Shown piece by piece: positions 28,243 through 43,734 of a stretch of DNA of 64,000 nucleotides. The stretch spans positions 1,489-65,488 of the forward strand of contig JAZQVI010000028.1 of the NCBI GenBank assembly GCA_045631745.1, written 5' to 3'. The notes under the pieces were generated by a model, which did no database searches, was not told the DNA's origin, and saw nothing but the letters and a program-made list of their open reading frames with translations. This DNA comes from Eubacteriales bacterium. GTDB taxonomy: Bacteria > Bacillota > Clostridia > Oscillospirales > CAG-272. How positions within the stretch are numbered: position 1 is the first letter of the stretch; each line of letters opens with the position of its first letter. Both the position numbers and the translations under genes were made by a program.

Positions 28243-30255
28243 TCAGGCAGGTCGGATTTTCCGACCTGCCTTTTTTGTATTACCAAAACTGGCCCCGATG
28301 AAAATCGGGGCGGGTTTTGGTTTTATTGGTTGGTGTTTGCCTTTTCCTTCTTGTCTTCCGACAACGCCTTCTTCGTAGTAGATTCTCTGAATCTCTCCGT
28401 CAACAACGGCAAAGCCAACGCTCTCGTTTCCTGCAAAATAGCAGTTTTCTCTCGCAACACGTTCCACCAGCTTGTTATATCTGTCTTTATAAGATCCTTG
28501 GCCGGGAAGCGTGGAGCTGGACTGCATGATTTCAGTTGCCTGCGTCACGAACGCATATGTGGGTTGGATCTCCTCAAAGATCGCAAATATGTCGTAGATC
28601 AAGTGATGCGCGGGCATTATGATATCACTCTTGAGCGTTAACTCGGTGTATACTTTTCTCAATCTCGTTTGGGTCGGCTGACACGCGTCGCCCAGGATGA
28701 TCATAGACATCTGTCCGTTATCAAAACGGACCACCGTACTGGTATCGTTGGAGTCACCGCTACTGAAGCGACTTGTGGTGGAAGTCAAAAGCTCCTCATG
28801 CGTGTAAAGCACTTCAAGACTCACGTCAGCAATCTGAATCTTCTGACCTGCGTGCGCCTTGATCTCCTTGCAGTTCGGGTACTTGGTCTTGATGAGATTG
28901 CTCCAATCATCTAAAAGTTTGTACGACCAGGAGGTCACTTCTGTGGAGAAGGGATAGGAGGAGCCACCGCAATTTTCGATCGGAATATTGGCAAGCACTC
29001 GCTCCAACTCGTAGTTCTCGTTGTATTTCTTGAGGAACTCGAAGAATCCCATGACGTGGTCAGCATGATAGTGCGTCAGATACCAGCAAGAAACTCTTAC
29101 CTTTTCTCCGTCGGGAGTTCCGGTGATTTGATGCAGGAAGGCATCAAATGCTTCCATGACCTCATCACCGTACATCTGCGTGCCGCCGTCTCCTTCATAA
29201 GCACCGCCATCAATGATGATCACGCTGTTGTCAGCGCACTTGATGATACTGAGCGCTCCGCAATTAGGATGCCCGTTATTCTTACCATCGGTCATGGGAA
29301 GACCGTAGAGATAATACTCACTGCGCTCGCCAGCCGCGGGGGTGTAGGAATAACCAAACTCATCAACGGAGATGCCCTTGGGGTCAGAGATGATCTGTAC
29401 CTCACTGGCTGCAGGCTTGAAGGAAACGTGAACTCTCCGCTCTGCATTCTTGTAGGTCAGGAAGAGGTTTTCAACCGTAAGATTTTCGTATTCCTTCTCA
29501 AATCCGAAGCTCTCCAGCTTTGCAAGATACGCCTCAAACTCTTCCATGTTGGTCTTGTTGACGCGTTGGAGGCTAACGTCGGATTTGTTCCGATTTGCGG
29601 AAGAGAGATCGGTGATGGTGGTACCGCAAGGATAATAGTTCGGGACCAAGGTGTTGACCCCTGGGGAATACGCAGGAACACCGCTCAGCTTCCAATCCAC
29701 TCTGGTGAAGCCCTTGAGAATCTTCTTTTCAGCGAGCTCTGCAGACACGATCAACTTCTCTGCAGCGTCGCCCGAAAGATAATTCTCGATAAAGTATTTC
29801 ACAGCAGTCTCCAGCTGATAGTCATCCGAGCCGTTGATCACAATCTTGTTCCCAACAACCGCAACGGTATAGTAGGAATCGCTTCCCACAGTCACGCCCT
29901 CGGGAGTTGCGCTCTCGGGGCGGTTGGTGGCTCCAAGGAGCACCTCGAACACAGTTGCATCTGCTGAACTCTTGTCATCCCCCAAGAAGTTGGGGTTGAG
30001 GCCCGTCTTTGCCTTGAAGGCAGTGCGGAGCTTGTTTCGAAGCTCTGTCACAGCGGGTCCTGCCTCAGCGGGGTAAACGAATGCACACTGATACTTTCCG
30101 CCCTCGAAAATGACAAAATCGGTTTTTTCAAGGTCATTCCCATCATCCTTCTCTTCTTTGAATATGGAATCCAAGAGATTACAGGACGAGCAAGCCCCGA
30201 TCATGAGGCTCACCAGCAGGATCGCCGCGATCATTCTTAAAAGTTTTCTTTTCAT
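28243..30255 (-). CDS. MBL-domain lipoprotein, tandem paralog 1 (intact lipoprotein signal, C-terminal read-through tail)
   Basis: Signal/lipobox MKRKLLRMIAAILLVSLMIGAC. The N-domain pattern (FVYPAEAGPAVTELRNKL..FEVLLGATNRPES..YYTVAVVGNKIVINGSDDYQL..AVKYFIENYL) resembles GH-accessory/DUF4838-type N-domains. MBL motifs: IIIDGG, THYHADH (29056-29073), KAHAG, ILGDA, MPAHH. SD aaaggaa lies upstream. Confidence 0.85.
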   Translation of the reverse strand: MKRKLLRMIAAILLVSLMIGACSSCNLLDSIFKEEKDDGNDLEKTDFVIFEGGKYQCAFVYPAEAGPAVTELRNKLRTAFKAKTGLNPNFLGDDKSSADATVFEVLLGATNRPESATPEGVTVGSDSYYTVAVVGNKIVINGSDDYQLETAVKYFIENYLSGDAAEKLIVSAELAEKKILKGFTRVDWKLSGVPAYSPGVNTLVPNYYPCGTTITDLSSANRNKSDVSLQRVNKTNMEEFEAYLAKLESFGFEKEYENLTVENLFLTYKNAERRVHVSFKPAASEVQIISDPKGISVDEFGYSYTPAAGERSEYYLYGLPMTDGKNNGHPNCGALSIIKCADNSVIIIDGGAYEGDGGTQMYGDEVMEAFDAFLHQITGTPDGEKVRVSCWYLTHYHADHVMGFFEFLKKYNENYELERVLANIPIENCGGSSYPFSTEVTSWSYKLLDDWSNLIKTKYPNCKEIKAHAGQKIQIADVSLEVLYTHEELLTSTTSRFSSGDSNDTSTVVRFDNGQMSMIILGDACQPTQTRLRKVYTELTLKSDIIMPAHHLIYDIFAIFEEIQPTYAFVTQATEIMQSSSTLPGQGSYKDRYNKLVERVARENCYFAGNESVGFAVVDGEIQRIYYEEGVVGRQEGKGKHQPIKPKPAPIFIGASFGNTKKAGRKIRPA
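28246..28277. terminator. bidirectional intrinsic terminator
   Basis: Hairpin ggcaggtcgg-attttc-cgacctgcc followed by ttttttg on plus, and a T-run after a short spacer on minus. It is embedded in the last codons of the minus-strand gene 28243..30255. Confidence 0.7.
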
Positions 30256-30288
30256 AACATGATTCCTTTCTGTTCAGAGGTACTCATT

Positions 30289-32067
30289 TCAACCTTGTCC
30301 GACCTGACGTCCGACAACGCCTTCAACGTAGTAGCATTTCTGAATCTGTCCGTCAATCACTGCAAGCCCGACACTCTCGTTTCCTGCAAAGTAGCAGTGG
30401 TCCCTTGCAACGAGGTTCACCAGCTTGTCAAATCTATCTTTGTAAGATCCTTGACCCTCGAGTCTGTCGCTCAACTGCGTGCACTCATAGGACTGCGTCA
30501 CGAGTGCAAACGTGGGCCGGATCTCCTTGTAGATTGCAAATACGTCGTAGATCAAGTGATGCGCAGGCATCACGATATCGCTCTTGAGCGTTAGCTCCGT
30601 ATAGTTTCTTCTCAGTTTCGATTCGGTTCTCTGTCCTGCGTCCCCCAGAATGATCATCGACATCTGTCCGTTGTCAAAACGGATCGCCGTACTGGTATCA
30701 TTGGAATCGCCGGAGTTGAACCATCCTATGGGGCTTAAAAGATCCTCGTGCGTGTAGAGCACATCGAGCGTCACGTCAGCGATCTGAATCCTCTGACCTA
30801 CGTGCACCTTCAACTCCTTGCAGTTCGGGTATCTGGTCTTGATGAGATTGCTCCATCCGTCAAGCAGCTTGAACCCCCAGTTGGTCATTGCCAAGGAAAA
30901 AGGATAGGCGGAGCCGCCACAATTCTGGATCGGAATGTTGGCAACCACTCTCTCCAGCTCGTAGCTCTCGTTGTATCGCTTGAGGAACTCGAGAAAGCCC
31001 ATGACATGGTCCGCGTGATAGTGCGTCAGATACCAGCAGGAAACTCTTACCTTGTCTCCGTCTGCCGTTTTGGTGATCTGATGCAGGAAGGCATCAAACG
31101 CCCCCATGACCTCCTCACCGTACATCTGCGTACCGCCGTCCCCCTCGTAAGCACCGCCATCAATGACGATCACGCTATTGTCGGCGCACTTGATGACACC
31201 AAGCGTTCCGGCATTGGGGTGATTGTTGCCCTTGGCATCGCTCATGGGGAGACCGTAAAGGTAATACTCACTGCGCTCGCCTGCCGCGGGGGTGTAGGAA
31301 TAGCCAAACTCCTCCACGGAAATTCCCATCGGGTCAGAGATGACCTGCACCTCCATCGCGCGGGGCTTGAAGGAAACGTGAACTCTCTGATCTGCATTTC
31401 GGTAGGTCAGGAAGCGATTCTCGGCCGTGAGGTTTTCGTATTCCTTCTCAAATCCGAATCTCTCCAGCTTTTCAAGATAGGCCGCGAACTCCGCCTCGGT
31501 GGTCCTGTCGATCCGCTGAAGGGTAACGTCAGACTTGTTGCGGTTTGCGGTAGAGAGCCCGGTGATAGGAGTTCCGCAACTGTATGCGTTGGGAATCAGC
31601 TTGTTGCCACCCGTCGGATATGCTGGGATCCCCTCGAGTCTCCAATACTCTCTGGTAAAACCCTTGAGAATCTTCTGCTCGAAGAGGTTCTCCGGCACGG
31701 TCAGCACCTCTGTGACGTCACCCGAAAGATAGTTCTCAATGAAGGATCTCACTGCAACGCCGAGCTGATAGATGTCCGAACCGTTGATCACGATCTTGCG
31801 ACCGACCACGGCAACTGTGTAATAGGAATCGGATTCCTCTATCACCCTCTCGGGAGCTGCGCTCTCGGGGCGATTGGTCTTTCCCAGAAGCACCTCAAAG
31901 ACTTCCGCATCGGCGTCGATCTTGTCCTCCCCCAAAAAGGAAGGCATGACGCCCGTTTTCCTTCCAAAGGCGTCGCGAAGTTCATTTCTGAGTTTTGACA
32001 CCGCGGATTCTGCCAAAACGGGGTGAACGAACCCACAATGATACTTGCCGTTCTCAAAAATTACCAT
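30289..32067 (-). CDS. MBL-domain protein, tandem paralog 2 (signal peptide deleted)
   Basis: About 80% aa identity to paralog 1 by eye over the MBL domain, with THYHADH, KVHVG, ILGDA and PAHH all intact. The ORF starts at MVIFENGKY, which aligns to residue ~47 of paralogs 1 and 4. Only 35 nt separate it from the upstream stop. Confidence 0.7.
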   Translation of the reverse strand: MVIFENGKYHCGFVHPVLAESAVSKLRNELRDAFGRKTGVMPSFLGEDKIDADAEVFEVLLGKTNRPESAAPERVIEESDSYYTVAVVGRKIVINGSDIYQLGVAVRSFIENYLSGDVTEVLTVPENLFEQKILKGFTREYWRLEGIPAYPTGGNKLIPNAYSCGTPITGLSTANRNKSDVTLQRIDRTTEAEFAAYLEKLERFGFEKEYENLTAENRFLTYRNADQRVHVSFKPRAMEVQVISDPMGISVEEFGYSYTPAAGERSEYYLYGLPMSDAKGNNHPNAGTLGVIKCADNSVIVIDGGAYEGDGGTQMYGEEVMGAFDAFLHQITKTADGDKVRVSCWYLTHYHADHVMGFLEFLKRYNESYELERVVANIPIQNCGGSAYPFSLAMTNWGFKLLDGWSNLIKTRYPNCKELKVHVGQRIQIADVTLDVLYTHEDLLSPIGWFNSGDSNDTSTAIRFDNGQMSMIILGDAGQRTESKLRRNYTELTLKSDIVMPAHHLIYDVFAIYKEIRPTFALVTQSYECTQLSDRLEGQGSYKDRFDKLVNLVARDHCYFAGNESVGLAVIDGQIQKCYYVEGVVGRQVGQG

Positions 32068-32102
32068 GTCAGATCCCTTCTCTTCTTTGTTTTTGTTATA
32101 TT

Positions 32103-34037
32103 TCAGCCTTGTCCGACCTGCCGTCCGACAACGCCTTCAACGTGGTAGCATTCCTGAATCTTCCCGTCGATCACTGCAAGACCGACGGTCTCGTTTCCTG
32201 CAAAGTAGCAGTTGTCGCCGACAAAGGAAACCAACTTGTCAAATCTCTCTTTATAAGAGCCTTGCCCCTCAATTCTTGAATTTGCCTGCGAGCACTCATA
32301 GGACTGCGACACAAGTGCAAACGTGGGGCGGATCTCCTTGTAGATTTCAAACACGTCGTAGACCAGGTGATGCGCCGGCATCACGACATCGCTCTTGAGG
32401 GTTGCCTCGGTAAAGATCCTTCTGAGTCTCGATTCGGTTCTCTGCCCGCCGTCCCCCAAGACCATCATAGACATCTGACCGTTGTCCACACGGATCACCG
32501 TGCTGGTATCATTGGAGTCAGCGCTGTTGAAGTAGCCTATGGGAGTCAAAAGATCCTCGTGCGTGTAGAGCACCTCAAGGCTCACGTCAGCGATTCGGAT
32601 CTTCTGACCTGCGTGCACCTTGATCTCCTTGCAGTTGGGGTATCTGGTCTTGAGGAGTTCACTCCACGCCTCGATCATATTGTACACCCAGTTGGTCATT
32701 TCCAAGGAGAACTGATTGGTAATTCCGCCACAGTCCTGAATCGGAATGTTGGCAATAATTCTCTCCAGCTCGTAGTTTTCATTGTATTTCTTGAAGAACT
32801 CAAGAAGTCCTCTGGTATGGTCGCTGTGATAGTGCGTGACATACCAGCCCGAAACTCTTACCTTCTCTCCTTCGGCAGTTCCGGTGATCTGATGCAAGAA
32901 GGCGTCAAACGCCCCCATGACCTCCTCACCGTACATCTGCGTGCCGCCGTTCCCCTCGTACTCGCCGCCGTCAATGATAATCACACTGTTGTCGGCACAC
33001 TTGATCAGCGCGAGCGTTCCGCAGTTGGGGTGACCATTTGCCTTGCAATCGGTCATGGGAATGCCGTAAAGGTAATATTCACTGCGCTCACCTGCCGCAG
33101 GGGTGTAGGAATAGCCAAACGCCTCAATAGCCATTCCCTTCGGGTCAGAGATGACCTGTGCCTCGCCAATGGCGGGCTTGAAGGATACGTGAACTCTCAT
33201 TCCATCCTTTTTGTAGGTCAGGAAGAGGTTCTCCGACGTAAGATTTTCGTATTCCTTCTCAAATCCAAAACGCTCCAGCTTCGTAAGATACGCCGCGAAC
33301 TCCGCCTCGGTGCTTCGGTCGATGCGCTGAAGGCTGACATCGGATTTGTTCCGTTTTTTGACAATGCGATTGGAAATGGTGCTGCCGCACTCATATTCAT
33401 TCGGCACCAGCTTGTTGCTCCCCACAGGATATGCGGGAACGCCGCCAAGTCTCCAGTACTCCCTGGTAAAATCCTTGAGGATCTTCTGCTCACATAGGTC
33501 TGCAGGCACCGTCAGCTCTTCCACAACATCGCCCGAAAGGTAGTTCTCAATGAAGGATCTCGCAGCAACGCCAAGCTGATAGTTGTCGGAGCCGTTGATC
33601 ACGATCTTATTTCCGATCACGGCAACCGTGTAATAGGAATCGGTTTCCTCAACCACGCCTGCCGGTGTCGCGCTCTCGAGGCGGTTGGTCTTGCCAAGCA
33701 ACACCTCAAGCACCTCCGCGTTTGCACAACTCTTATCTTCTCCCAAAAAGGAAGGAATGACACCCGTTTTTTTCTCAAAAGCACTGCGAAGCTCATTTCG
33801 GATCAGCGATACCGCGCCTTCTACCAAAACGGGGTAAACAAACTTAAAATTATACTTGCCGTTTTCGAAAATTACAATATCAGTTTTCATGTTTTTTCCG
33901 TTCTTCTTGTCCTTTCCGCGTATAGAATCTACAAGAAAACAAGGCGGGGAGGCTCCGATCATGGAGCTTCCCCGCCGGACTGCCGCTATAATTCTTAAAA
34001 CGTTTTTTGCAGCACAACACCTACGACAATCGATCAT
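32103..34037 (-). CDS. MBL-domain protein, tandem paralog 3 (decayed signal peptide and start region)
   Basis: Body is intact (THYHSDH, KVHAG, VLGDG, PAHH). The N-terminus is ..IIAAVRRGSSMIGASPPC.. where paralogs 1 and 4 have a hydrophobic core plus GAC lipobox. The ancestral ATG and SD are mutated and there is no SD before 34037. An alternative internal ATG exists at 33890 (MKTDIVIFENG). Confidence 0.62.
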   Translation of the reverse strand: MIDCRRCCAAKNVLRIIAAVRRGSSMIGASPPCFLVDSIRGKDKKNGKNMKTDIVIFENGKYNFKFVYPVLVEGAVSLIRNELRSAFEKKTGVIPSFLGEDKSCANAEVLEVLLGKTNRLESATPAGVVEETDSYYTVAVIGNKIVINGSDNYQLGVAARSFIENYLSGDVVEELTVPADLCEQKILKDFTREYWRLGGVPAYPVGSNKLVPNEYECGSTISNRIVKKRNKSDVSLQRIDRSTEAEFAAYLTKLERFGFEKEYENLTSENLFLTYKKDGMRVHVSFKPAIGEAQVISDPKGMAIEAFGYSYTPAAGERSEYYLYGIPMTDCKANGHPNCGTLALIKCADNSVIIIDGGEYEGNGGTQMYGEEVMGAFDAFLHQITGTAEGEKVRVSGWYVTHYHSDHTRGLLEFFKKYNENYELERIIANIPIQDCGGITNQFSLEMTNWVYNMIEAWSELLKTRYPNCKEIKVHAGQKIRIADVSLEVLYTHEDLLTPIGYFNSADSNDTSTVIRVDNGQMSMMVLGDGGQRTESRLRRIFTEATLKSDVVMPAHHLVYDVFEIYKEIRPTFALVSQSYECSQANSRIEGQGSYKERFDKLVSFVGDNCYFAGNETVGLAVIDGKIQECYHVEGVVGRQVGQG

Positions 34038-34063
34038 GTTTCAGGATCGTTGTTTTGTAAGCG

Positions 34064-35971
34064 TCATCCGTTTTGTCTGTACTCTCTTTGGATGTCGTGG
34101 CGGATTACCTGAATCTGTCCGTCAACCACAGCGAGACCTACCGTCTCATTTCCTGCAAAGTAGCAGTTGGCCTCATCAACAAAGGAGATCAACTTGTTGT
34201 ATCTCTCGATATAAGATCCTTCTTCACCGACCTTGGACTTGGACTGCGAGCACTCATAGGACTGAGGCACAAGCGCAATCGTGGGCTGGATTGCATCATA
34301 AACCTTGAACACGTTGTTGATCAAGTGATGCGCTGGCTGAACGATGTCACTCTTGAGAGACAACTCGGTATAGATTTTTCGCAATTTCGCTTCGGTTGTA
34401 CGACCGGCGTCACCCAAGCTGAACATGGACATCTGTCCGTTATCAAAACGGGTTACGATACTGGTATCGTTGGAGTCGTTGCTGCTGAAGCGATTTATGG
34501 AATTAAGGAGATCCTCGTGCGTGAAAAGAATATCCAGGCTTACGTCAGCGATCTGAATCTTCTGACCGGAGTGCACCTTCAACTCCTTGCAGCTGGGGAA
34601 CTTGGTCTTAATAAGATTGCTCCATCCATCAAGAATTCTGTACGACCAGCCGGTCATTTCAGCGGAAAAGGAAGTAGACGAACCGCCACAATTCTCAATC
34701 GGAATATTTGCAATCACTCTTTCAAGCTCATAGTTCTCACAATAGCGCTTGAAGAACTCAAGAAGTCCTCTGGTGTGGTCGCTGTGATAGTGCGAGAGAT
34801 ACCAAGCAGAAACTCTTACCTTATCTCCGCTTGCGGTTCCGGTGATCTGATGCAGGAACGCATCAAAATCTCCCATTACCTTATCACCGTACATCTGCGT
34901 GCCGCCCTCACCCTCGTACTCACCGCCATCGATGATAATGACGCTGTTGTCAGCGCACTTGATGACAGAGAGCGTTCCGCAGTTGGGGGCATTGTTGCCG
35001 TTGCAATCGGTCATGGGAAGACCGTAGAGATAATACTCGCTGCGCTCTCCCGCCTTAGGAGTATAGGAATAACCAAACGCTTCAACAGAGGTACCATTCG
35101 GGTCGGAAATAACCTGAACCTCCGAGATCGCAGGCTTGAAGGAGACATGAACTCTCTGATCCTCGGATGTGTAGGTCAAAAAGAGATTCTCAGCCGTGAG
35201 ATTTTCGTATTCCTTCTGAAATCCGAAGCTCTCCAGCTTTGCAAGATACGCCTCGAACTCTGCCATGGTGGTCTTTTCAATACGCTGAAGCGTAACATCA
35301 GACTTATTGCGGTTTGCGTCAGAGAGATTCGTAATGGTGGTACCGCTGTTATAGGCATTTGCAATCAGAGTGTTGACACCTGCCGCGTATGCGGGAATAC
35401 CATTCAGCTTCCAGGACGCTCTGGTGAAGTCCTTGAGGATCTTCTGCTCGGAAAGATCCGCGGATACTGCCAGCTTCTCTGCAACGTCGCCCGACAAATA
35501 CGTCTCAATGAAGTACTCGACCGCAACGCCCAGCTGATAGCTGTCGGATCCGTTAATCACGATCTTGTTTCCAACAACGGCAACGGTATAGTAGGAATCG
35601 CTTCCCTCCGTCACGCCCTGGGGAGCCATGCTCTCGGGGCGGTTGGTGTTTCCCAAAAGCAGCTCAAACACTTCCGCGTTTGCGTCGCTCTTTCCATCAT
35701 CCTTGAAGGAGGGATTGATCCCCGTCTTCGCCTTAAAGGCGGTGCGAAGCTCATTTCTGAGCTCCGCCACCGAGGAATCAGCCGAAGCGGGGTAAACAAA
35801 CTCACAATTATACTTGCCGTTTTCGAAAATCACCATGTCGGAAACAACACTGCCGGGATCGCCCTGGTCCTCTTTGAAGATCGAATCGAGGAGACCACAG
35901 GACGAGCAAGCGCCCATCATGCACCCCATCAACAGAACTGTCGCTATGACTCTTAAAAAGGTTCTCTTCAT
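34064..35971 (-). CDS. MBL-domain lipoprotein, tandem paralog 4 (intact lipoprotein signal)
   Basis: MKRTFLRVIATVLLMGCMMGAC lipobox and SD aaaggaa. SHYHSDH, KVHSG, SLGDA and PAHH are present. The C-terminus diverges (..QVIRHDIQREYRQNG). Confidence 0.85.
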   Translation of the reverse strand: MKRTFLRVIATVLLMGCMMGACSSCGLLDSIFKEDQGDPGSVVSDMVIFENGKYNCEFVYPASADSSVAELRNELRTAFKAKTGINPSFKDDGKSDANAEVFELLLGNTNRPESMAPQGVTEGSDSYYTVAVVGNKIVINGSDSYQLGVAVEYFIETYLSGDVAEKLAVSADLSEQKILKDFTRASWKLNGIPAYAAGVNTLIANAYNSGTTITNLSDANRNKSDVTLQRIEKTTMAEFEAYLAKLESFGFQKEYENLTAENLFLTYTSEDQRVHVSFKPAISEVQVISDPNGTSVEAFGYSYTPKAGERSEYYLYGLPMTDCNGNNAPNCGTLSVIKCADNSVIIIDGGEYEGEGGTQMYGDKVMGDFDAFLHQITGTASGDKVRVSAWYLSHYHSDHTRGLLEFFKRYCENYELERVIANIPIENCGGSSTSFSAEMTGWSYRILDGWSNLIKTKFPSCKELKVHSGQKIQIADVSLDILFTHEDLLNSINRFSSNDSNDTSIVTRFDNGQMSMFSLGDAGRTTEAKLRKIYTELSLKSDIVQPAHHLINNVFKVYDAIQPTIALVPQSYECSQSKSKVGEEGSYIERYNKLISFVDEANCYFAGNETVGLAVVDGQIQVIRHDIQREYRQNG

Positions 35972-35997
35972 AGCATGATTCCTTTCTTCACAGGGGA

Positions 35998-37506
35998 TTA
36001 GTCGATTTCGTAGTTTTGCAGGAATTCGTCGATCTTGATATCCAGAGAATCAGCCAGCGTGGTAACGGTGGAGATTACTTCAAACTTGTTGTTCACGATT
36101 TGACGAATGTCGGTATTCTTCTCATTGATCCAAGTGTAAAGACCTGCAGTCTCCAGGCAGATGGACTTTGCAACGATGTCAAAGATCTTTGCCTCGGTCT
36201 CGTTCTGTGCATAGTTGGTCTTCATGGTGTTCTCATAGTATGCGGGGTAGATGTAGTTGTAGGAGAGCGCCATGTACAGCTCATAGAAGTACGCAGCGTT
36301 CTCGGGATTTGCAGTCTGTGCAGGAATACCGGAAACGTTGGAGTTCCAGGTGGGAAGGAAGGACTTGTACTCGCCACCTGCCGTCTCCATGGGAACGGGC
36401 AACAGGCACTCCTCAACACCAAGCAGCTGTCTTGCAGCTCCGTATGCACCAATCATACCGATCTGGAAGAGCGCCTGGCCACGGTTGAACTCTGCAGCGC
36501 TTCCATTCTCTGCAGGAATGTGAACGTACTTGGAACTGGTCTTGTCGCGAATTGCAGCCAGACGAGCCTGGTTCTCAGCGGAGTTAACGGTTACGTAGGG
36601 GAGGTCCTGACTGTTCTTTCCAATGGTGGTTCCGCCCAATGCATAGAAAAGGTTCTCACAACCGTACTCGGAAATTACAAGGGTGTACTTGTCATTCTCG
36701 TTGTTGTAAACGGTACCGGTTGCAAAATCTCCATCGTAGGTGAACAGCTTTTCAAACGTCCACTCCTTGTTGAGTGCGAGGTTGTACAGCTCCTGCTTCA
36801 GGTCCGTACCGTGCTGATCGGTCAGTGCGGTGTTGTTTACACAAGTAACCTGCGTACCCTTGATGTTACCGGTGGTGTAGTAGCCTGCGGTTGCCAACTG
36901 CTTGCCTCCAACGGAGAGCTGCTGGTTGAGGGTAGAGGTATAGTAGGTCTGGTCGTGGTGAATGAGGTTATCGTACTCGTTCAGATCCATGAGGACCTTC
37001 TCCTGAGCCAGCTTACCAAGGGTGGATCCACCGAACATGAGCAGATCATAGTCCTTGAGCATACCGCCCGAATGCAGGTCGATGAACTTTGCACTCTCAC
37101 TCTCTGTACCATCAAAGGTGTTGGGGTTCGTGCCGTATCCATTGTAAATGAGACGCGCGCCGGTCAGAGCCTCAAATTTCTGGTCGCGCTTGTAGCTTGC
37201 CTCTGCAACCTTGCTGGTTGCGATCTCATCGGTCTTGGGGGCGATGGGCTTGGGAACCCATGTGCTGGCAGATTTTCCGCCCAAGGAATAGCCAACAGTG
37301 AATTGCTCACCGTCGAAGGTCTTGTCCTCCAGGCCGGTCATGTTGTAGACCTCGTCTCTTACCTGAGCGGTGCCATTGCCGTCACCGGAACCGGAATCAT
37401 CTGCGGAGGGGTCGTTCTTCTTCCCAAACAAATCACAGGATGCGATCATCGGAAGCATCACCATGATTGCCAGGATCAGACACAGAAGTTTGCTTGTGGT
37501 TTTCAT
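35998..37506 (-). CDS. extracellular solute-binding-protein-like lipoprotein (orphan; no permease or ATPase genes nearby)
   Basis: Signal/lipobox MKTTSKLLCLILAIMVMLPMIASC, a D/S/G linker, and a ~500 aa size and composition typical of family-1 (LipO-like) SBPs. Strong SD aaaggagaa. The family assignment is by eye only. Confidence 0.6.
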   Translation of the reverse strand: MKTTSKLLCLILAIMVMLPMIASCDLFGKKNDPSADDSGSGDGNGTAQVRDEVYNMTGLEDKTFDGEQFTVGYSLGGKSASTWVPKPIAPKTDEIATSKVAEASYKRDQKFEALTGARLIYNGYGTNPNTFDGTESESAKFIDLHSGGMLKDYDLLMFGGSTLGKLAQEKVLMDLNEYDNLIHHDQTYYTSTLNQQLSVGGKQLATAGYYTTGNIKGTQVTCVNNTALTDQHGTDLKQELYNLALNKEWTFEKLFTYDGDFATGTVYNNENDKYTLVISEYGCENLFYALGGTTIGKNSQDLPYVTVNSAENQARLAAIRDKTSSKYVHIPAENGSAAEFNRGQALFQIGMIGAYGAARQLLGVEECLLPVPMETAGGEYKSFLPTWNSNVSGIPAQTANPENAAYFYELYMALSYNYIYPAYYENTMKTNYAQNETEAKIFDIVAKSICLETAGLYTWINEKNTDIRQIVNNKFEVISTVTTLADSLDIKIDEFLQNYEID

Positions 37507-37550
37507 GTTTTTTCTCCTTTTTTGTTTTTTTATTTAATGATACGATCGTA

Positions 37551-37850
37551 TCATTTTTCAGAGGTATCGCCCCAAGAGCCCTTGATGAAATCGTCATCAG
37601 ACATCTCACTCTTGTACTCTACTTCGGGAACCGGGGGTTCTGCGGGCTTTGTGGTTGCTGACGTGCCCTTGCCGTCATCCTCGTCGGAGACTTTGTCATC
37701 GCTGTTCTCGACGGGATCCGTGTCGTCGCTCTTATCTACCCAGGGAGCCTTCTCATCCAGCCAGGTCTTAAGCCCACAGGATGTAGTGAGCACGATCATC
37801 GCAAGACTGAGCACCAGCAAAAGAATTGCGCGTACGTTCATGTGTTTCAT
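37551..37850 (-). CDS. small acidic lipoprotein, unknown function
   Basis: MKHMNVRAILLLVLSLAMIVLTTSC followed by a D/E-rich mature part. The start was set to the ATG at 37850, behind SD aaaggag; the track start at 37886 overlaps the upstream gene. Confidence 0.6.
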   Translation of the reverse strand: MKHMNVRAILLLVLSLAMIVLTTSCGLKTWLDEKAPWVDKSDDTDPVENSDDKVSDEDDGKGTSATTKPAEPPVPEVEYKSEMSDDDFIKGSWGDTSEK

Positions 37851-37863
37851 ATCCATTCTCCTT

Positions 37864-40800
37864 TCACGCCAAGGGCTCGAGCGCACGATTGATCACACCG
37901 TTCTTGAAGGATACCGTCACCGCCTCTCCGCAAATGCGAAGTCCAAGCTTGCCGATCATCTTGAAGCTCTTGACCTCAAAATCGATCTGACCGATGTTGG
38001 TTGGAACGCCATCCAAAACTGCGCCGAAGATGTAGAATGCGCCAAGATCGGTTGCCAAGCAGTTGGTCATGGTTCCGTTTTCGGTTGCATTGATCGAGTC
38101 ATAAACGGTCGTTCCGCTCAAGCGGTAGAACATCTCAACGATCTTGCCGTCCGCATCCTTGTATCGCGCCGTAATCTCAAATCCTACACCGACACAGCTC
38201 GTATTGTAAACACCGCCGATAAAGCGGATGCTTTGCGTGCCGTCCTTCGCCTCGCTATACTGGATATCCACCACGTCGGAGCTATTCAGCGCCTTCTCGT
38301 AAAGCACGAAGGTCATGGGCTCGGTGATCACCAGAGCGGGATCGCCTTCCCAGGGAGGAAGCACAACCATTCCGGTTGCCTTATCCAGCCAAAGGGCATC
38401 CATTTTGGCACCTGCCTCGGGGAAGCTTTGGATCGAAACGCTGCCGTCTTCGCCAAGGAGCTCCTTTCTCAAAAGGCCGCCATTTTCATTTTCGAAGGTT
38501 ACGTACTGGAGCTGAGGCATCACGTCGGTATTCGATACCACACCCTCGTAGATGGAGATATCCTTAACATCCAGGATCTCGGTTCCATTGGCAGGCTTAG
38601 CCAACGTGCCGTAACTGGAAAATCCAACACAGAATGCAAGGGTCTTGGTGTCAAAATCAGAAAGTTTAACCCCCGCATTGGTGTTTTTCACGTTCTCGAG
38701 GTTCCAGGACATTGGCACCACCTCGTCACCGACCTTCAGGGAAATGACTCCCTTGTTGATGATCAGAACGTAACGAACGTATCCGTCCTCGTCGCATCCG
38801 TTCTTCCAAGGGTTACCCATCTTAAGACCGGTTCCGAACTCGCTGCTGCCGTCCGTTCTCATATAAATGTCCATGCCTGTGTAGAAGTTCTTGACGCCTC
38901 CGTCCATGTGGACTCGAACACCCGCAGTCTTGTTCGGGCTCTTAAGGTCATTGGTAAATCCTGCGTACATACCGGTATTACCGTTCATCTTGACATAATA
39001 CTCAACGGTATAAACGCTGTCGGTGGTCAAGGGCAGGTCGGTCAGGACACCGTAGCCGCCCCAGCCTTTGCTCGCGCCATTCTTGTCGACAACGTATGTA
39101 CTCAAGTTACTCTTGGTCACTCCGTAGGAATAGTTCTGCGTCGCATTCACGCCCTCGCGCTGATACGTGACGGCATCCTTATCCAAGCCCGAAAGCTGGA
39201 GCAAGAGAGGCCCGTTCTTGTCGAACGTCTGGCGCACAGTCAGCGCCGCGGACTCGGTAAAGGTCGTGGGAACCTGAATCTCCTCGCCGGTCGCCTTGTT
39301 GCGCCAACCCTGAAGGTTGACCATGCCAAGATCCGGGAAAGCAGTCAGCGTATAGCCGCTCTTGGGGATCTCATAGGTCGCCATCACCTTGCCTGAGCCA
39401 TTCTCAAAGGTCAGGAACTCCTGGTGCACAACCAGGATTGTCGTCTCGGTAAAGGTTGTGGATGCCAAAACATCCTCGCCGGTTCCCTTGTTGGTCCAAC
39501 CCCAAACGTTGGTAAAACCAAGATCCGGGAAGGTACCAAACGTCAGACCGTCGTCCTTGGGAATCTCATAAGTCTCCAAGACCTTGCCTTCTGCGTCCTC
39601 AAAAATCACGAACTCTTGGTGCGCAACCAGTGTCGTGGACTCGGTAAAGGTCACAGGAGTCTGAACCTTCTTGCCGGTCTCCTTGTCAGACCAATCCCAT
39701 ACATTGATCAAACCAACGTCGTGGAAGGTCTCCAGCGGCAAGCCGTCCACGGAGGGAATCTCATAGGTTGCCATGACCTTGCCGGTGCCATCCTCGTATG
39801 TCAAGAACTCCTGGTGTGCAACCAGCGTCGTTGACTCGGTAAAGGTCAAGGGGAACTCAACCTTCTCGCCGGTCTCCTTGTTATACCAGTGCCATACGTT
39901 GGTAATATCAAGCTCGGGGATCTCTTCAAGCGTCAGACCGCCCTCGAGAATCTCACGGTAGCCCAGTTCCTTGCCCGCTTCGTCCTCAAAGATCACGTAT
40001 TCTCTATATGTAGGAACTTCGGGAACCTCGGGCGCCTCATCGGGGTTGATAACGCCGGAATAGATGGAGATGTTCTTAACCTCAACAACCACATCGTCCT
40101 TTACAGGCTTGGTATAGCTGCTGCCTGCTCCCTTTTCACAATAACCCATCTGGAGGCAAAGCGTTTTTACAGTCCAATCATTTACCTTCGGGAACTGCTT
40201 GAGACCCGATCCGTTGGTATCCAGGTTCTCCGAACCTCGTGTAAGGTCATATCTTACACCGATATCCACGCCGTCAATGGAAAGCCCCATATACCGACCA
40301 TCAAAGGTCAGAACAAACCGAACAAATCCGTCCTCATCAGCCCTATCCGTCCAAACGTTGCCGTCCAACGCAACAGGTTCTCCGTTGTTCACTCCCTCTT
40401 TGTAATATCCGTTTACAAACCACTTGCTCTTCGTGCTAACCTTATTTCCAGCAGCATAAACGAGCACATCGGGGCCGTAATTGGGATAATTCAGGTTCTG
40501 GCAGAATCCCGCATAAAAGCTCATGGCATTGTTGGGATTCATCTTTGCGTAAAACTCGATGGTATAAGCCGTATCGCAGCCAAGTGGAAGGCCGGTGTTA
40601 AGCCCAATACCACCCAACACATCGCTGGAGCTACACACGATTTGCGTCGTGTCTTCGCCGCCCAACTTCACCTTGTTTCCGGAAGTTTGCGCCAGTATGG
40701 TTCCGTAAGGATTGTAGGTAACCGAATCCTTTGACAAGGAATCCATCTGCAAGAGCAGCGTCCCGTCATTGTATGGCGGAGGCACCGCAAACACCGACAT

Positions 40801-40887
40801 CGGAAGCGCCGTTGTCAGAATCAGCACGGCAAGAACAACCGCAATTAGCTTTGAAAGGGATGTTCGCTTCAAAAGGTTCTTCTTCAT
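37864..40887 (-). CDS. large secreted multidomain protein: two lectin/LamG-like jelly-roll modules, 4+1 Listeria/Bacteroides-type repeats, unknown C-terminal domain
   Basis: Type I signal MKKNLLKRTSLSKLIAVVLAVLILTTALPMSVFA. Two homologous ~240-aa modules (DGTLLLQMDSLSKDSVTY..YTIEFYAKMN..DEDGFVRFVLTFDG..VEVKNISIYSG versus NGPLLLQLSGLDKDAVTY..YTVEYYVKMN..DEDGYVRYVLIINK..LDVKDISIYEG). Four tandem 64-65-aa repeats (F.xFEDxxGKV..YEIP....L..FPDLG..NVWGW..K.TGE.V..P.TFTESTTLVAHQE). SD aaaggagga; start set to the ATG at 40887. Confidence 0.85.
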   Translation of the reverse strand: MKKNLLKRTSLSKLIAVVLAVLILTTALPMSVFAVPPPYNDGTLLLQMDSLSKDSVTYNPYGTILAQTSGNKVKLGGEDTTQIVCSSSDVLGGIGLNTGLPLGCDTAYTIEFYAKMNPNNAMSFYAGFCQNLNYPNYGPDVLVYAAGNKVSTKSKWFVNGYYKEGVNNGEPVALDGNVWTDRADEDGFVRFVLTFDGRYMGLSIDGVDIGVRYDLTRGSENLDTNGSGLKQFPKVNDWTVKTLCLQMGYCEKGAGSSYTKPVKDDVVVEVKNISIYSGVINPDEAPEVPEVPTYREYVIFEDEAGKELGYREILEGGLTLEEIPELDITNVWHWYNKETGEKVEFPLTFTESTTLVAHQEFLTYEDGTGKVMATYEIPSVDGLPLETFHDVGLINVWDWSDKETGKKVQTPVTFTESTTLVAHQEFVIFEDAEGKVLETYEIPKDDGLTFGTFPDLGFTNVWGWTNKGTGEDVLASTTFTETTILVVHQEFLTFENGSGKVMATYEIPKSGYTLTAFPDLGMVNLQGWRNKATGEEIQVPTTFTESAALTVRQTFDKNGPLLLQLSGLDKDAVTYQREGVNATQNYSYGVTKSNLSTYVVDKNGASKGWGGYGVLTDLPLTTDSVYTVEYYVKMNGNTGMYAGFTNDLKSPNKTAGVRVHMDGGVKNFYTGMDIYMRTDGSSEFGTGLKMGNPWKNGCDEDGYVRYVLIINKGVISLKVGDEVVPMSWNLENVKNTNAGVKLSDFDTKTLAFCVGFSSYGTLAKPANGTEILDVKDISIYEGVVSNTDVMPQLQYVTFENENGGLLRKELLGEDGSVSIQSFPEAGAKMDALWLDKATGMVVLPPWEGDPALVITEPMTFVLYEKALNSSDVVDIQYSEAKDGTQSIRFIGGVYNTSCVGVGFEITARYKDADGKIVEMFYRLSGTTVYDSINATENGTMTNCLATDLGAFYIFGAVLDGVPTNIGQIDFEVKSFKMIGKLGLRICGEAVTVSFKNGVINRALEPLA
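39226..39999 (-). repeat. four tandem ~195-bp coding repeats (Listeria/Bacteroides Flg_new-like modules) inside the large secreted protein gene
   Basis: Protein residues 309-566 of the track ORF divide into units of 64, 65, 65 and 64 aa, each ending in TFTES..L.V.Q. Confidence 0.8.
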
Positions 40888-40982
40888 TCTGTTTCCTCCT
40901 TTGTTGAAACTGCACAATTTCAATCCGTCGCGATATGCAAAAAGACGATACTTCGACGAAAGAAAAGTTGGTGTACGAGGCT

Positions 40983-41011
40983 ATTGTATCATATAGCAAA
41001 AATGACTTCAA
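40983..41011 (-). promoter_or_regulatory. sigma-A promoter for the 7-gene exported-protein operon
   Basis: Minus strand TTGAAG (41011-41006), 17 nt spacer, TGaTACAAT (TACAAT 40988-40983). Confidence 0.55.
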
Positions 41012-41139
41012 GCACTGTTCTTCTCTAATTATGATACTTTTGTCTTTTTTTGCGAGAATAAAGTAAAAATTTGCACGCTTTACTCTTGGAAAAGGATAAA
41101 ATTGAAATTTTCCTCACAGCACCCCCTCTTCGACAAGGA

Positions 41140-41190
41140 AAAAAGCACCAAAAAAGGGTGTCTCGAATGCGTTTTTCATTCGAGACACCC
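41140..41190 (-). terminator. intrinsic terminator after the GT8-PlsC-membrane protein operon
   Basis: 14-bp hairpin gggtgtctcgaatg..cattcgagacaccc, followed on the minus strand by ttttttggtgctttttt. Confidence 0.75.
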
Positions 41191-41204
41191 CTTTGGGGTG
41201 AGGG

Positions 41205-41780
41205 TCAGAGGGGCGGTCTTGCCCCTTCCCTTCTTTTCAGCCGCTCCAGCGCCGCCTGCAGCATAGGGGTATTATAGCGAAGCGCCAACGTCGGCAGGAT
41301 ATTTAAAAACAAATTGACAATAGCAACGGGAAGCGCAACCGTGAAGGCACAAACGTTCGGGATTGTGAGCATGGCCAAAAATCCGATGGGATAGGAGAGC
41401 CTGTGCGTGAGAACCCCCTTGTTACATTCTATAATGAAACGTTCGATATACGCGGGGTTGTCCGGCTCGCGCAGAACCTTCTTACTGAATCCCCCAAGAC
41501 CGCCAAGCTCCCAGACCCTATCCTTCCAACGTCTTACCTTTATTTTTTTATAGAGCTGTCGCTCCCACTCACTCACGCGATAGAGAGGATTCTCCACGCC
41601 AAACCATTTGTTTGGCATTTTGTTGATGGCAATCGCCCAAAAGCCGTCCAGTGCAAACTGGAGCGCGGTACACCAAACCACGGCGGCGATCACGTAATAC
41701 CACGGGGCGATTCCGACGGCAATATTAACGGCAGAGATCAACGCCATCGCGCCTCCGATGATGGATAGATAAAGTCTCAT
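41205..41780 (-). CDS. integral membrane protein, possibly glycosyl-4,4'-diaponeurosporenoate acyltransferase (CrtO)-like
   Basis: Four predicted TM segments and a central W..R.WK basic loop. ATGA overlap with the upstream acyltransferase gene. The family call is tentative. Confidence 0.5.
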   Translation of the reverse strand: MRLYLSIIGGAMALISAVNIAVGIAPWYYVIAAVVWCTALQFALDGFWAIAINKMPNKWFGVENPLYRVSEWERQLYKKIKVRRWKDRVWELGGLGGFSKKVLREPDNPAYIERFIIECNKGVLTHRLSYPIGFLAMLTIPNVCAFTVALPVAIVNLFLNILPTLALRYNTPMLQAALERLKRREGARPPL

Positions 41781-42607
41781 CTCTCACCGTACACAAGGGG
41801 CTTTTGATAAAACTCCTCGTAGACTCCTACCCACGCCTCGTAGTTTTCCCGTTTCATCTTCTCCCTCGCCTCTGCCGCCGAAAGGCTCGCGTCGGGATAG
41901 ATGGCAGGCAGGATATGAATGATGTATTCCTGCACGAAAAAGCCCTCTCCGTCCGACACGTCACTGTCCTCCATGGTGATAAAGATGGGCACGACGGGAG
42001 TCCTATTCCGCACCGCCAGCGAGAACGCGCCGTCCTGCATGGGCTTTGGCTTGCGATAGTTCCACCACATACTCTGCTCGGGATAGATCAAGATGGTCTC
42101 CCCTCTCTCCAAAAGCGTGCTCACCGCGCGCAGAAATTTCTTCATAGTCGCGGTCTGACTTGACAGAGGGAGCGTGTTGCAATGCCGCATGAAAAGACCG
42201 AAAGGCTTAGGGGGATTGGTGTAGTTCCCTTCCCGAATGACCTTGTACAGCATTTTCCCGTCCATATGATCGCGCAATGCGACCCAGACTGCATAATTGT
42301 CGCAAACACTGAAATGGTTACAGGTAACAAATCTTCCTCCCTTGACGGCGGTGAAATTCTCGATCCCGCGGATCTCCTTGATCATCAACTGACGGTTTGC
42401 AATCATGTTGTCAAAGAAGCGCGCACCGGCGATATTGGCAATCTTATTCATGATTTTGCTCGACAGCTTTTCGTTCAGATAGTCCACCTTGTCAGGCATG
42501 AGAGGATAGGTCTCGGGGTCGTCCTCAACATCCAGGTGCCACAGCTCTTTTTTTTCAAGCTCCTCGATTCGTGCGAGCAGCTCTGATTTATGCGATGATC
42601 GCTCCAT
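41777..42607 (-). CDS. lysophospholipid (1-acyl-sn-glycerol-3-phosphate) acyltransferase family protein
   Basis: PlsC-type motif CNHFSVCD (NHxxxxD) and IYPEQS (like FPEGT). Confidence 0.78.
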   Translation of the reverse strand: MERSSHKSELLARIEELEKKELWHLDVEDDPETYPLMPDKVDYLNEKLSSKIMNKIANIAGARFFDNMIANRQLMIKEIRGIENFTAVKGGRFVTCNHFSVCDNYAVWVALRDHMDGKMLYKVIREGNYTNPPKPFGLFMRHCNTLPLSSQTATMKKFLRAVSTLLERGETILIYPEQSMWWNYRKPKPMQDGAFSLAVRNRTPVVPIFITMEDSDVSDGEGFFVQEYIIHILPAIYPDASLSAAEAREKMKRENYEAWVGVYEEFYQKPLVYGER

Positions 42608-43538
42608 ACGTTCCCTCCTGTGAAAGTTTTTTTACAAACGTGTTTCCGGAATCCACGATCCGCATCGCATGATCCAGAATTTCTTTCGCCGACGCTTCCT
42701 TCTTGGCACGGTCTGCGTCACTGAAATTTTGCCTTCTGTGGCAAATTTCCTCATAGAACGGAGAACACTTGGCATACTGCCAAAAATACTCGCCGTACAT
42801 CACGTCATCATACTGCCAGGGCTTTTTGTAGAGCGCGTAATGCAGGATCCTCTCCCGCCCCTCGCATGGCAAGGGCATCGGCTCCTTGTTCCAACCGTTC
42901 GGAAGGACATGGATTCTGCCCGCGCACAGATAATTCAGATATGCCTGATCGGGATCAAGTAGGTCAAAATCATGCTCGGTAATAAGCCGAATGAATTGAT
43001 CCTCGATCCCCGCCCTTCTGTATTCCGCGAGGTTCATCAAAAGCACACCTGCATTCACATATGTATCGGGGTCAACGCCAAGCGCCTTTTCAGCGTACAG
43101 TCTGAATTCCCTCGTATTCTGCACGAACGCCTCAGGTGCCGCACCCAAAATGTGATTTCCCAGTTCGGTTTGATACAGCTCGGAGATATCCCCAAGCACC
43201 ACGAGATCACAGTCCAGATACACCGCCTTATCGTACTGTGGAAAGAGCGATGCGATAAACATTCTGTAATAGGTAACAATGGAAAAATGGTACACGTCCT
43301 TGAGGCGCGATTTGATCGACGCGAGTTGCTCGGAAATATTCACAAACTCAATCCGCACGCCCGATCGCTCGTTCTGCTTCACCGTCTCTGCACTTTTCTC
43401 GGAAACGCCCGTGTTCATAACAATGATCCTGTAGTCGTAATCCCTTGATGCATTCTCGATTAAAGAACGCAGTGCCACGTCAAGATAGGGGATGTAGTTG
43501 TCGTCGGTGGAAAAGAAAATCGGGATCTCCTTTTTCAT
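42588..43538 (-). CDS. glycosyltransferase family 8
   Basis: IFFSTDDNY.PYL.V.. and YLDCDLVV (DxD), with NAGVLLMNL. The start was set to the ATG at 43538, behind SD aaaaggag. It overlaps the downstream gene by 20 nt. Confidence 0.84.
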   Translation of the reverse strand: MKKEIPIFFSTDDNYIPYLDVALRSLIENASRDYDYRIIVMNTGVSEKSAETVKQNERSGVRIEFVNISEQLASIKSRLKDVYHFSIVTYYRMFIASLFPQYDKAVYLDCDLVVLGDISELYQTELGNHILGAAPEAFVQNTREFRLYAEKALGVDPDTYVNAGVLLMNLAEYRRAGIEDQFIRLITEHDFDLLDPDQAYLNYLCAGRIHVLPNGWNKEPMPLPCEGRERILHYALYKKPWQYDDVMYGEYFWQYAKCSPFYEEICHRRQNFSDADRAKKEASAKEILDHAMRIVDSGNTFVKKLSQEGTYGAIIA

Positions 43539-43575
43539 ACGTATTACTCCTTTTTGGTTCTGTCCTTTGAGCTCC

Positions 43576-43730: not shown

Positions 43731-43734
43731 CTTT

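Follow-up and report, generated by a model that had tools for sequence, protein, structure and literature searches.

The window analysed here is a stretch of 64,000 nt from an Eubacteriales bacterium (assembly GCA_045631745.1, contig JAZQVI010000028.1, nt 1,489 to 65,488), and the subject of this report is a cluster of seven genes lying in one direction on its minus strand between nt 28243 and 40887 of the window. Four of these genes, P4, P3, P2 and P1 in the order of reading, are tandem paralogs encoding proteins with a metallo-beta-lactamase (MBL) domain behind an N-terminal domain of a type otherwise seen in glycosidases. They are predicted, at a probability of about 0.45, to be phosphodiesterases whose substrate is a glycan or glycoconjugate containing phosphodiesters; some isoforms would sit at the cell surface and others inside the cell, and the locus would be catabolic. 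The domain folds, the intact metal motifs, which proteins have a signal peptide and which do not, purifying selection on the seven genes and synteny were established by the analysis, and from them the bond cleaved, the class of substrate, the cooperation with neighbouring proteins and the division of labour between surface and cytoplasm are to be distinguished as predictions. Loci from other genomes are given below as L followed by a number, and homologous proteins as P followed by four digits. The seven genes, delimited as open reading frames (ORFs), and the domains of P4, delimited on an AlphaFold2 model, are as follows.

37864-40887 (-): gene for a 1007-aa secreted protein
37551-37850 (-): gene for a 99-aa acidic, low-complexity probable lipoprotein (…VLTTSC|G)
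35998-37506 (-): gene for a 502-aa lipoprotein (…MIASC|D), a divergent protein resembling solute-binding proteins (SBP-like)
34064-35971 (-): paralog P4, a 635-aa lipoprotein (MMGAC|SS); GH20b-like N-domain at 35432-35839, middle alpha+beta domain at 34997-35419, MBL domain at 34088-34984
32103-33890 (-): paralog P3, 595 aa from the ATG at 33890, without a signal peptide; the ORF is open to 34037
30289-32067 (-): paralog P2, 592 aa, without a signal peptide, catalytic motifs intact
28243-30255 (-): paralog P1, a 670-aa lipoprotein (LMIGAC|SS)

A preliminary description of this DNA had reported seven co-directional genes separated by gaps of 13-44 nt; all seven ORFs were found on the minus strand, and the gaps were reproduced when its start codons were used. 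Its statement that the seven genes include no glycosidase, permease or regulator agreed with Pfam, which found none. Searches of all seven cluster proteins against Pfam and NCBIfam gave sub-threshold matches only.

Domain architecture and metal-binding site of the paralogs

P1 to P4 shared 66-70 % pairwise identity. An AlphaFold2 model of P4 computed from 42 homologs (pLDDT 89.8, pTM 0.86) began with a signal helix and a disordered linker; these were followed by the alpha/beta N-domain (residues ~45-180), the middle domain of alpha+beta type (~185-325) and the MBL domain (~330-628), in keeping with the three-part architecture proposed in the preliminary description. The signal peptide was the sole predicted membrane element, and the chain ended directly after the MBL domain.

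Two features mark members of the MBL superfamily (PF00753): an alpha-beta/beta-alpha sandwich and a set of five conserved motifs (D; HxHxDH; H; D; H) through which one or two metal ions are bound. Both features were found in the paralogs, the motifs in the sequences and the sandwich in the model. All the motifs quoted previously, IIDGG, HYH[AS]DH, K[AV]H[AVS]G, LGD[AG] and PAHH, were present in each of the four proteins. The predicted ligands D348, H394, D398, H399, H467, D521, H548 and H549 (P4 numbering) were invariant in the 42 homologs, H396 was nearly so, and the ligands were still conserved across a 65-member sample of the superfamily. The final motif PAHH, for which the superfamily consensus is AHHG, resembled the aligned ComEC segment APHHG. 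Scores against PF00753 (gathering threshold 22.7 bits) were exactly 22.7 for P2 and 15.1-19.1 bits for P1, P3 and P4; weak NCBIfam matches included lactonases, glyoxalase II and B3-like blaAHM.

The Foldseek search with the whole P4 model was dominated by the MBL domain and gave 168 PDB matches at E ≤ 1e-3. The first 50 listed were all of MBL fold, and no alkylsulfatase or lactonase was among them. The MBL domain of ComEC ranked first (9ic4, 3e-12, TM 0.77 on the target), followed by Pce of Streptococcus pneumoniae (1wra/2bib, 3e-11) and then by PNGM-1, RNase J and CPSF73. A PDB profile search with the paralog family placed Pce/CbpE first (E 8.6e-7 to 6.9e-6) and ComEC MBL domains next. The site had been called ComEC-type; by profile and by structure its closest relatives are the MBL domain of ComEC and Pce.

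For the N-domain, a second model covering P4 residues 44-325 (pLDDT 89.4) was used. Its Foldseek matches extended over ~150 residues and included GH115 (4c90, 1e-5), GH20 (8pxt/7dup), GH84 (6pwi/6pv4) and GH67 (1mqq), with E values of 1e-5 to 5e-4 for 4c90, 8pxt, 4zmh, 6pwi, 7dup and 1mqq. Since the regions matched were the N-terminal domains of these enzymes, whose alpha/beta fold is common to GH20, GH67, GH84, GH89 and GH115, the earlier guess of an accessory domain of the DUF4838/GH20/GH67 type was right. The similarity was also visible in sequence, NAGLU_N giving sub-threshold matches to three of the four paralogs and relatives reaching 1.5e-5 for Glyco_hydro_20b and 8.5e-5 for NAGLU_N; a PDB profile search with the N-domain plus middle region (N+middle) gave no matches. 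The middle domain had no convincing structural or Pfam match, a weak one to DUF6591 being seen in 2 of 65 relatives, and it was kept in short homologs devoid of the N-domain.

Certain enzymes of families GH84 and GH67 contain the GH20b domain too, and the catalytic domain invariably follows it (PMC4449183). The N-terminal domains of the GH20b, NAGLU_N, GH67N and GH115 types thus share with the paralogs both the fold and the position ahead of a catalytic domain. In glycosidases, however, they precede a (beta/alpha)8 barrel in all described cases, whereas here the following domain is an MBL and in relatives a Metallophos, EEP or GDPD domain. No glycosidase catalytic domain was detected by Pfam in the 65 sampled relatives or in the four paralogs. 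The paralogs are MBL superfamily members with a GH20b-type domain and no glycosidase barrel. The preliminary description knew of no characterised protein with this fusion, and none was found in homolog searches, cluster look-ups or the literature, including the literature on MBL enzymes in polysaccharide utilisation.

Export signals, selection and copy number

Of the four paralogs, P4 and P1 alone are lipoproteins, so that neither a cluster of exported proteins only nor four copies of a lipoprotein, as described before, was found. The N-terminus of P2 (MVIFENGKY) corresponds to the first strand of the N-domain and begins 35 nt past the stop codon of P3, which leaves no signal peptide; a plausible ribosome-binding site lies ahead of it. 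In P3, the frame upstream of the ATG at 33890, RIIAAVRRGSSMIGASPPC, can still be recognised as a copy, though a disrupted one, of the signal peptide and lipobox of P1 and P4, with no ribosome-binding site and with its hydrophobic core interrupted by RRGSS. The sole in-frame ATGs are codon 26, located in the loop of a hairpin described below, and codon 50. In L001 and L014, no start codon precedes the signal-like segment in this frame, and P3 orthologs were called there as 595-aa proteins, matching the ATG at 33890. P3 as a lipoprotein read from the upstream frame was rejected on account of the missing start codon in these two genomes, the RRGSS break and the position of the codon-26 ATG, and the predicted protein likely starts at ATG 33890 with 595 aa. 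As judged from their sequences, two of the four enzymes are thus not exported by any recognisable signal.

All seven genes were under purifying selection, with dN/dS of 0.19-0.33 against the syntenic locus L001. Individual values were 0.19 for P2, 0.19 for P3, 0.30 for P1, 0.28 for the 1007-aa protein gene and 0.32 for the 99-aa protein gene. Amino acid identity to the L001 orthologs was 81 % for P3 and 82 % for P2 (the P2 orthologs being 591 aa long) versus 70-73 % for P4 and P1. Constraint is strongest on the two signal-less copies, P2 and P3.

The full seven-gene order and the flanks recurred in L001 and, minus P1, in L014; a survey of related genomes showed the cluster to be syntenic in these two and its core to be kept in more distant loci. 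L001 and L003 possessed four copies with a pattern of 636/595/591/634-640 aa, L014 had three, and loci whose enzyme was 37-50 % identical had one MBL-fusion copy each. At least five further lineages (L017/L034, L020, L027, L035 and L039) contained independent tandem duplications. The array of four arose by a recent expansion specific to its lineage; in relatives there are one to four copies. Signal-less proteins composed of the middle and MBL domains also occurred in distant lineages (P0056, P0057, P0062, P0063 and a 437-aa protein of L035). Because signal-less forms are present both in the orthologous clusters and in distant lineages, the family can be said to pair exported with non-exported isoforms repeatedly.

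The last 35 codons of P1 (28246-28350) are a non-conserved read-through past the stop codon of its orthologs and run through both 3' hairpins of the cluster; at the stop site, the window has CAA and a 10-nt insertion versus TAA in L001 and L003. The read-through adds a 35-residue basic tail, the translation of which passes through both terminator hairpins (28243-28350, minus strand).

Breadth of the family

A word-indexed search yielded 73 homologs, all from metagenomes or metagenome-assembled genomes (MAGs). An exhaustive search with the N+middle region gave 889 cluster representatives at E ≤ 1e-3, the majority being MBL fusions, with 155 of the 889 at E ≤ 1e-10, and a metagenome scan added only two further loci. 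No informative name for any family member was present in the homolog records or cluster look-ups. All 20 genome loci belonged to uncultured Clostridia MAGs (Eubacteriales, Oscillospiraceae and Lachnospiraceae), and the MAGs whose titles named a host were all from herbivore guts.

Among the 65 sampled members, the lipobox cysteine was invariant, 47 matched Lactamase_B (E < 0.01), 8 NAGLU_N and 5 Glyco_hydro_20b. The same N-domain was also fused to Metallophos (P0179), to GDPD plus Metallophos (P0170) and to EEP (P0165 and P0167), and a 3270-aa Lachnospiraceae protein contained eight N-domains together with EEP and GDSL domains. From sequences and models, the paralogs are members of a large family of Clostridia proteins, uncharacterised and mostly lipoproteins, that combine a GH20b/NAGLU_N-type domain, a family-specific middle domain and a binuclear-metal MBL domain of the Pce/ComEC branch.

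Proteins encoded beside the paralogs

The 1007-aa protein had a cleavable signal of the SPase-I type (VFA|V), two related domains of ~240 aa (about 40-285 and 556-785), five repeats of ~65 aa (295-555 and 793-865) and a C-terminal domain of ~140 aa. Only 8 homologs were found among 5.8 billion proteins. No Pfam or PDB match that would bear on the putative lectin nature given in the preliminary description was obtained, the PDB profile search included, and Pfam searches with four of its sub-segments and with the 99-aa protein gave nothing credible. The same protein is encoded by two genes with an ORF of ~50 aa between them in L007 (10001-13860), L015 (1699-4763) and L009 (3485-8208); the window gene is therefore either a fusion, or the genes of the more distant loci are splits. 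The 99-aa lipoprotein had a counterpart of 83-95 aa at the same position in L001, L014 and L007.

The 502-aa lipoprotein matched SBP_bac_8 at E=1.8e-5 with 25.1 bits, under the cutoff of 27. Of its 14 homologs, 3 matched SBP_bac_8 and 2 SBP_bac_1, all below threshold; a single-sequence PDB search gave 9kha at E=0.0024, and a PDB profile search with the family gave no matches. The label of a solute-binding-like protein given in the preliminary description thus stands as a weak likeness to SBP_bac_8, and the family cutoff is not reached. No ABC permease or ATPase gene adjoined it in the cluster or in the syntenic L001, L007, L009, L011, L014 and L037. In each of the seven independent loci with an enzyme at least 37 % identical, the SBP-like gene directly preceded the MBL gene; it was seen in no locus with an enzyme below 37 %. 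In L014, a second SBP-like gene, 70 % identical to that of the window, was located at the contig end (20535-21815), ~5 kb beyond the cluster, and hints at another related module there.

Genomic neighbourhoods of relatives

Loci with an enzyme 37-50 % identical (L007, L009, L011, L015 and L037) shared a core of the large protein, a small 83-91-aa protein, the SBP-like lipoprotein and the MBL fusion, the small protein being lacking from L037. The large protein was often encoded there by two genes with an ORF of ~47-50 aa between. These loci were headed by AraC or PocR regulators and had GH2, GH31, GH39, GH78, MFS transporter and AP_endonuc_2 genes as neighbours. A cytoplasmic GDPD gene was part of the gene string (operon) of the SBP-like/MBL pair in L037, and a Metallophos gene was present in the adjacent cluster in L011. 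More distant relatives adjoined sugar ABC permeases, GH3, GH2, GH78, GH106, several GFO/IDH/MocA genes and giant secreted proteins. A regulator, a transporter and carbohydrate-active enzymes (CAZymes), the set of a Gram-positive polysaccharide utilisation locus, were thus found around relatives 31-50 % identical and not within the seven window genes.

Predicted function and alternative explanations

Phosphodiester cleavage is predicted on several grounds. The nearest characterised relatives of the paralogs, Pce and the MBL domain of ComEC, are both phosphodiesterases (PMC8579336, PMC12455585). The N-domain precedes three other phosphoesterase folds elsewhere in the family, and exactly three folds, MBL (Pce), metallophosphatase (PGAP5, Ted1 and Cdc1) and EEP (GlcNAc-PDase), are known among enzymes that free glycans of phosphodiester substituents (PMC10704324). 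Operon partners of the GDPD and Metallophos types and the glycan-catabolic neighbourhoods point in the same direction. The substrate would be a teichoic-acid-like polymer or a glycan carrying phosphocholine, phosphoethanolamine, glycerol-phosphate or sugar-phosphate. The surface-anchored P4 and P1 would act on the polymer outside the cell, where the SBP-like lipoprotein and the large repeat protein may cooperate with them, and the signal-less P3 and P2 would complete the same chemistry on imported fragments, giving a division of labour between surface and cytoplasm. An extracellular capture-and-cleave system was envisaged in the preliminary description; the system is not purely extracellular, as two of the four enzymes, the most conserved ones, carry no export signal. 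From its list of possible targets (phosphodiester, sulfate, lactone, nucleic acid), the phosphodiester is favoured, whereas extracellular nucleic acid is a poor fit because of the glycan-catabolic neighbourhoods of the relatives and the conserved cytoplasmic isoforms.

Pce is an extracellular MBL-fold phosphodiesterase with a binuclear metal site that acts on a glycopolymer, being the phosphorylcholine esterase of teichoic acid. It shares with the paralogs the MBL catalytic module and the motif set HxHxDH … H … D … HH, but identity is 13-14 %, it has neither a GH20b-like nor a middle domain, and no cytoplasmic isoform or SBP-like partner is known for it. Since the C-terminal choline-binding repeats of Pce are absent from the paralogs, no CW_binding match being given by Pfam in the cluster proteins, the paralogs are not Pce. 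The MBL domain of ComEC/Rec2 (9ic4, 9vc9) is the best structural match, faces outside and has a similar terminal HH; it is, however, joined to a competence channel and OB-fold domains and acts on DNA. Neither the polytopic channel nor the OB-fold domain was found in the paralogs by Pfam or NCBIfam, and for lack of a channel domain the paralogs are not ComEC. The GlcNAc-PDases are secreted EEP-fold enzymes of gut Clostridiales, single-domain proteins of 219-357 aa, that strip phosphodiester substituents from glycans (PMC10704324). An EEP domain is also fused to the same N-domain within the present superfamily; the GlcNAc-PDases differ from the paralogs in their unrelated catalytic fold and single-domain build. 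The teichoic-acid-degrading GlpQ/GDPD enzymes resemble the family in that GDPD is fused to the N-domain in P0170 and encoded in the L037 operon, although their fold is different from that of the paralogs.

Several points weigh against the phosphodiesterase prediction. Identity to Pce and ComEC is 13-16 %, and MBL chemistry is diverse, the activity being predicted from sequence and a model. In GH20 enzymes, the GH20b domain is non-catalytic and needed for stability (PMC4449183); as this role is structural, the domain alone is no proof of a glycan substrate. The fusions to alternative phosphoesterases are rare (3 of the 65 sampled, plus P0167), the assignment of the SBP-like protein is sub-threshold, and the context rich in glycoside hydrolases comes only from relatives 31-50 % identical. 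In the window, Pfam detected no glycosidase, transporter or regulator among the seven genes, and no transporter for the proposed glycan fragments was identified.

A different MBL chemistry on a glycan or small molecule, such as that of a sulfatase (SdsA1-type), lactonase, thioesterase or other esterase, is rather unlikely. The fold supports such reactions, weak NCBIfam matches to lactonases, glyoxalase II and blaAHM were seen, the giant N-domain protein also bears a GDSL esterase, and glycans in herbivore guts have many ester substituents; yet the top profile and structure matches are phosphodiesterases, with no alkylsulfatase or lactonase among the first 50 Foldseek matches, the terminal PAHH/AHHG resembles the APHHG of ComEC, and the domain swaps and operon partners are phosphoesterases. 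The ranking of ComEC as best structural match would also suit an array of secreted or surface nucleases whose attack on DNA or RNA outside the cell would scavenge nucleotides or phosphate or remodel biofilms, as would the weak matches to TIGR00361 (ComEC_Rec2) and the fact that EEP and Metallophos, alternative partners of the N-domain, include nucleases. Such an array is nevertheless improbable: the TIGR00361 scores of the paralogs are 17.5-23.5 bits versus a cutoff of 190, two conserved paralogs with intact active sites are cytoplasmic and have no visible immunity partner, the GDPD and GDSL partners are not nuclease folds, the genes nearby serve carbohydrate catabolism, none for the transport of nucleosides or nucleotides having been seen, and a GH20b-like domain or an SBP-like partner has no precedent in nucleases.

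Remodelling of the cell's own envelope, in which a Pce-like enzyme would trim phospho-substituents of its teichoic acid or glycolipid, could be tied to the GT8, PlsC-type acyltransferase and CrtO-like genes directly upstream, which are conserved in L001 and L014, and would agree with the Pce-like MBL domain and the lipoprotein anchor of two copies. This explanation is improbable as well, since a strong conserved terminator (see below) separates the upstream genes from the cluster, these genes are absent from the distant loci, which have AraC regulators, glycosidases and transporters, and cytoplasmic isoforms and a copy number varying from one to four better fit catabolism. The possibility that the array is partly decaying, P2 and P3 being pseudogenised duplicates that have lost export, is very remote. 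The degraded signal-peptide relic of P3 and the lost stop codon of P1 could be taken for decay, but dN/dS is lowest (0.19) and identity to orthologs highest (81-82 %) for P2 and P3, whose reading frames are unbroken and retain every catalytic residue, and proteins without a signal are also present in distant lineages; the pseudogene reading of the two copies was rejected on dN/dS.

Transcription signals

The signals predicted around and within the cluster are as follows.

41152-41194 (-): intrinsic terminator of the upstream CrtO-like/acyltransferase/GT8 genes, an 18-bp stem followed by UUUUUU (dG -34.7 kcal/mol, z = -7.9)
40983-41011 (-): promoter-like site, TTGAAG, 17 nt, TGaTACAAT (9 of 12 matches plus the extended -10 TG)
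40888-40982 (-): conserved leader of ~95 nt following the promoter-like site
33943-33976 and 33931-33942 (-): GC-rich hairpin and U-rich tract between P4 and P3 (dG -31 kcal/mol, z = -2.7)
28292-28311 (outer stem 28282-28321) and 28245-28271 (no strand assigned): two 3' hairpins (region 28245-28321, dG -49.6 kcal/mol, z = -9.4)

The terminator at 41152-41194 was conserved in L001 and L014 and insulates the cluster on its 5' side. The promoter-like site noted in the preliminary description was present, and its -35 and extended -10 elements were kept in the same two genomes; region-wide, such sites were not more frequent than in shuffled sequences (12 observed versus 11.7). The upstream terminator and the conserved promoter region support an independent transcription unit and lend no support to a link with the upstream genes of glycolipid type. 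The 317-nt intergenic region 40888-41204 was 82-87 % identical to its counterparts in L001 and L014, versus 71-72 % for the adjacent coding sequence, and the conservation included an AT-rich block upstream of the -35 element. Rfam searches with the leader and with the whole window gave only two tRNAs and spurious hairpin matches, and the leader had no significant fold. As the region is conserved, yet without an Rfam match or a significant fold, a protein operator is likely to be located in it.

The hairpin between P4 and P3 consists of a 13-bp GC-rich stem followed by UUGUUUUCUU and occupies the relic signal-peptide codons of P3 (33931-33976). Its sequence was identical in the three genomes (window, L001 and L014), whereas the homologous segments of P4 and P1 had no significant fold. 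It may be an internal terminator or attenuator, a candidate that would split the exported module from P3-P2-P1. A single terminator had been reported for the cluster; the hairpin at 28245-28271 was real, and the two 3' hairpins terminate both the cluster and a convergent plus-strand operon, but a conserved terminator-like hairpin lies inside the cluster and weakens the claim of a single transcript.

Other genes of the window and of related loci

Upstream of the cluster, nt 41205-44373 (minus strand) encode an XRE-type helix-turn-helix protein, a GT8 glycosyltransferase, a PlsC-type acyltransferase and a CrtO-like membrane acyltransferase, a set resembling one for glycolipid synthesis. A functional link of the cluster to the GT8 and acyltransferase genes was rejected in view of the conserved terminator between them and the absence of these genes from distant loci.

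The convergent operon of the window has the order Lactamase_B–GH30–GFO/IDH/MocA–AP_endonuc_2–HpcH–2-hydroxyacid-dehydrogenase. A gene at 21862-22635 (plus strand), just upstream of the GH30 gene, encodes a 257-aa cytoplasmic MBL protein that was 46 % identical to a 257-aa MBL protein encoded directly downstream of the distant fusion homologs P0042 and P0046 in Oscillospiraceae MAGs (L004 and L036), and may, from this similarity, represent a second conserved MBL partner. GFO/IDH/MocA oxidoreductase genes were recurrent neighbours of MBL fusions. Genes for AP_endonuc_2 proteins of ~300 aa (xylose-isomerase-like TIM barrels) repeatedly followed the MBL fusion, at 12082-13868 in L037, 11953-12861 in L009 and 14001-14876 in L012; the three were mutually 26-30 % identical, and in L037 the GDPD gene follows. 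The AP_endonuc_2 gene of the window was rejected as an ortholog of these, the alignment being partial and identity only 26 %. No GDPD gene was detected among the window genes scanned with Pfam.

Long ORFs antisense to the true genes, up to 1126 aa, were observed at 36016-39396 and 34073-35956 (plus strand) and in many other places. They were rejected as genes, since codon usage accounts for them: TTA, CTA and TCA codons are nearly absent from the cluster (16 of 4100 codons). Elsewhere in the window, a radical-SAM maturase gene (19664-21133, minus strand) adjoins a gene for a SCIFF peptide (21149-21289, minus strand), MKHIETIETRNLCDSAKNGGCGECQTSCQSACKTSCGIANQECENK.

Significance

Phosphodiester links and substituents stop glycosidases and are found in teichoic acids, capsules, phosphomannans and glycans bearing phosphocholine, phosphoethanolamine or glycerol-phosphate. 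To our knowledge, very few enzymes that remove phosphodiesters from glycans have been described. It is conceivable, though doubtful, that the family belongs to an unrecognised class of CAZymes, "glycan phosphodiesterases", in which a GH20b module is combined with at least four unrelated folds (MBL, metallophosphatase, EEP and GDPD) and which, with surface and cytoplasmic isoforms and an orphan SBP-like partner, would depolymerise or de-decorate phosphodiester glycopolymers as nutrients. Its targets would be teichoic acids of other bacteria, phosphoglycans, or inositol-phosphoryl glycolipids of plants and fungi. The split between surface and cytoplasmic isoforms and the orphan SBP-like partner offer testable handles on how extracellular and intracellular steps are divided in Gram-positive bacteria. 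If the prediction is true, the enzymes would provide new tools for glycan analysis, and a gut-Clostridia family of ~900 representatives would help to explain how gut Firmicutes recycle microbial cell walls and other phosphoglycans.

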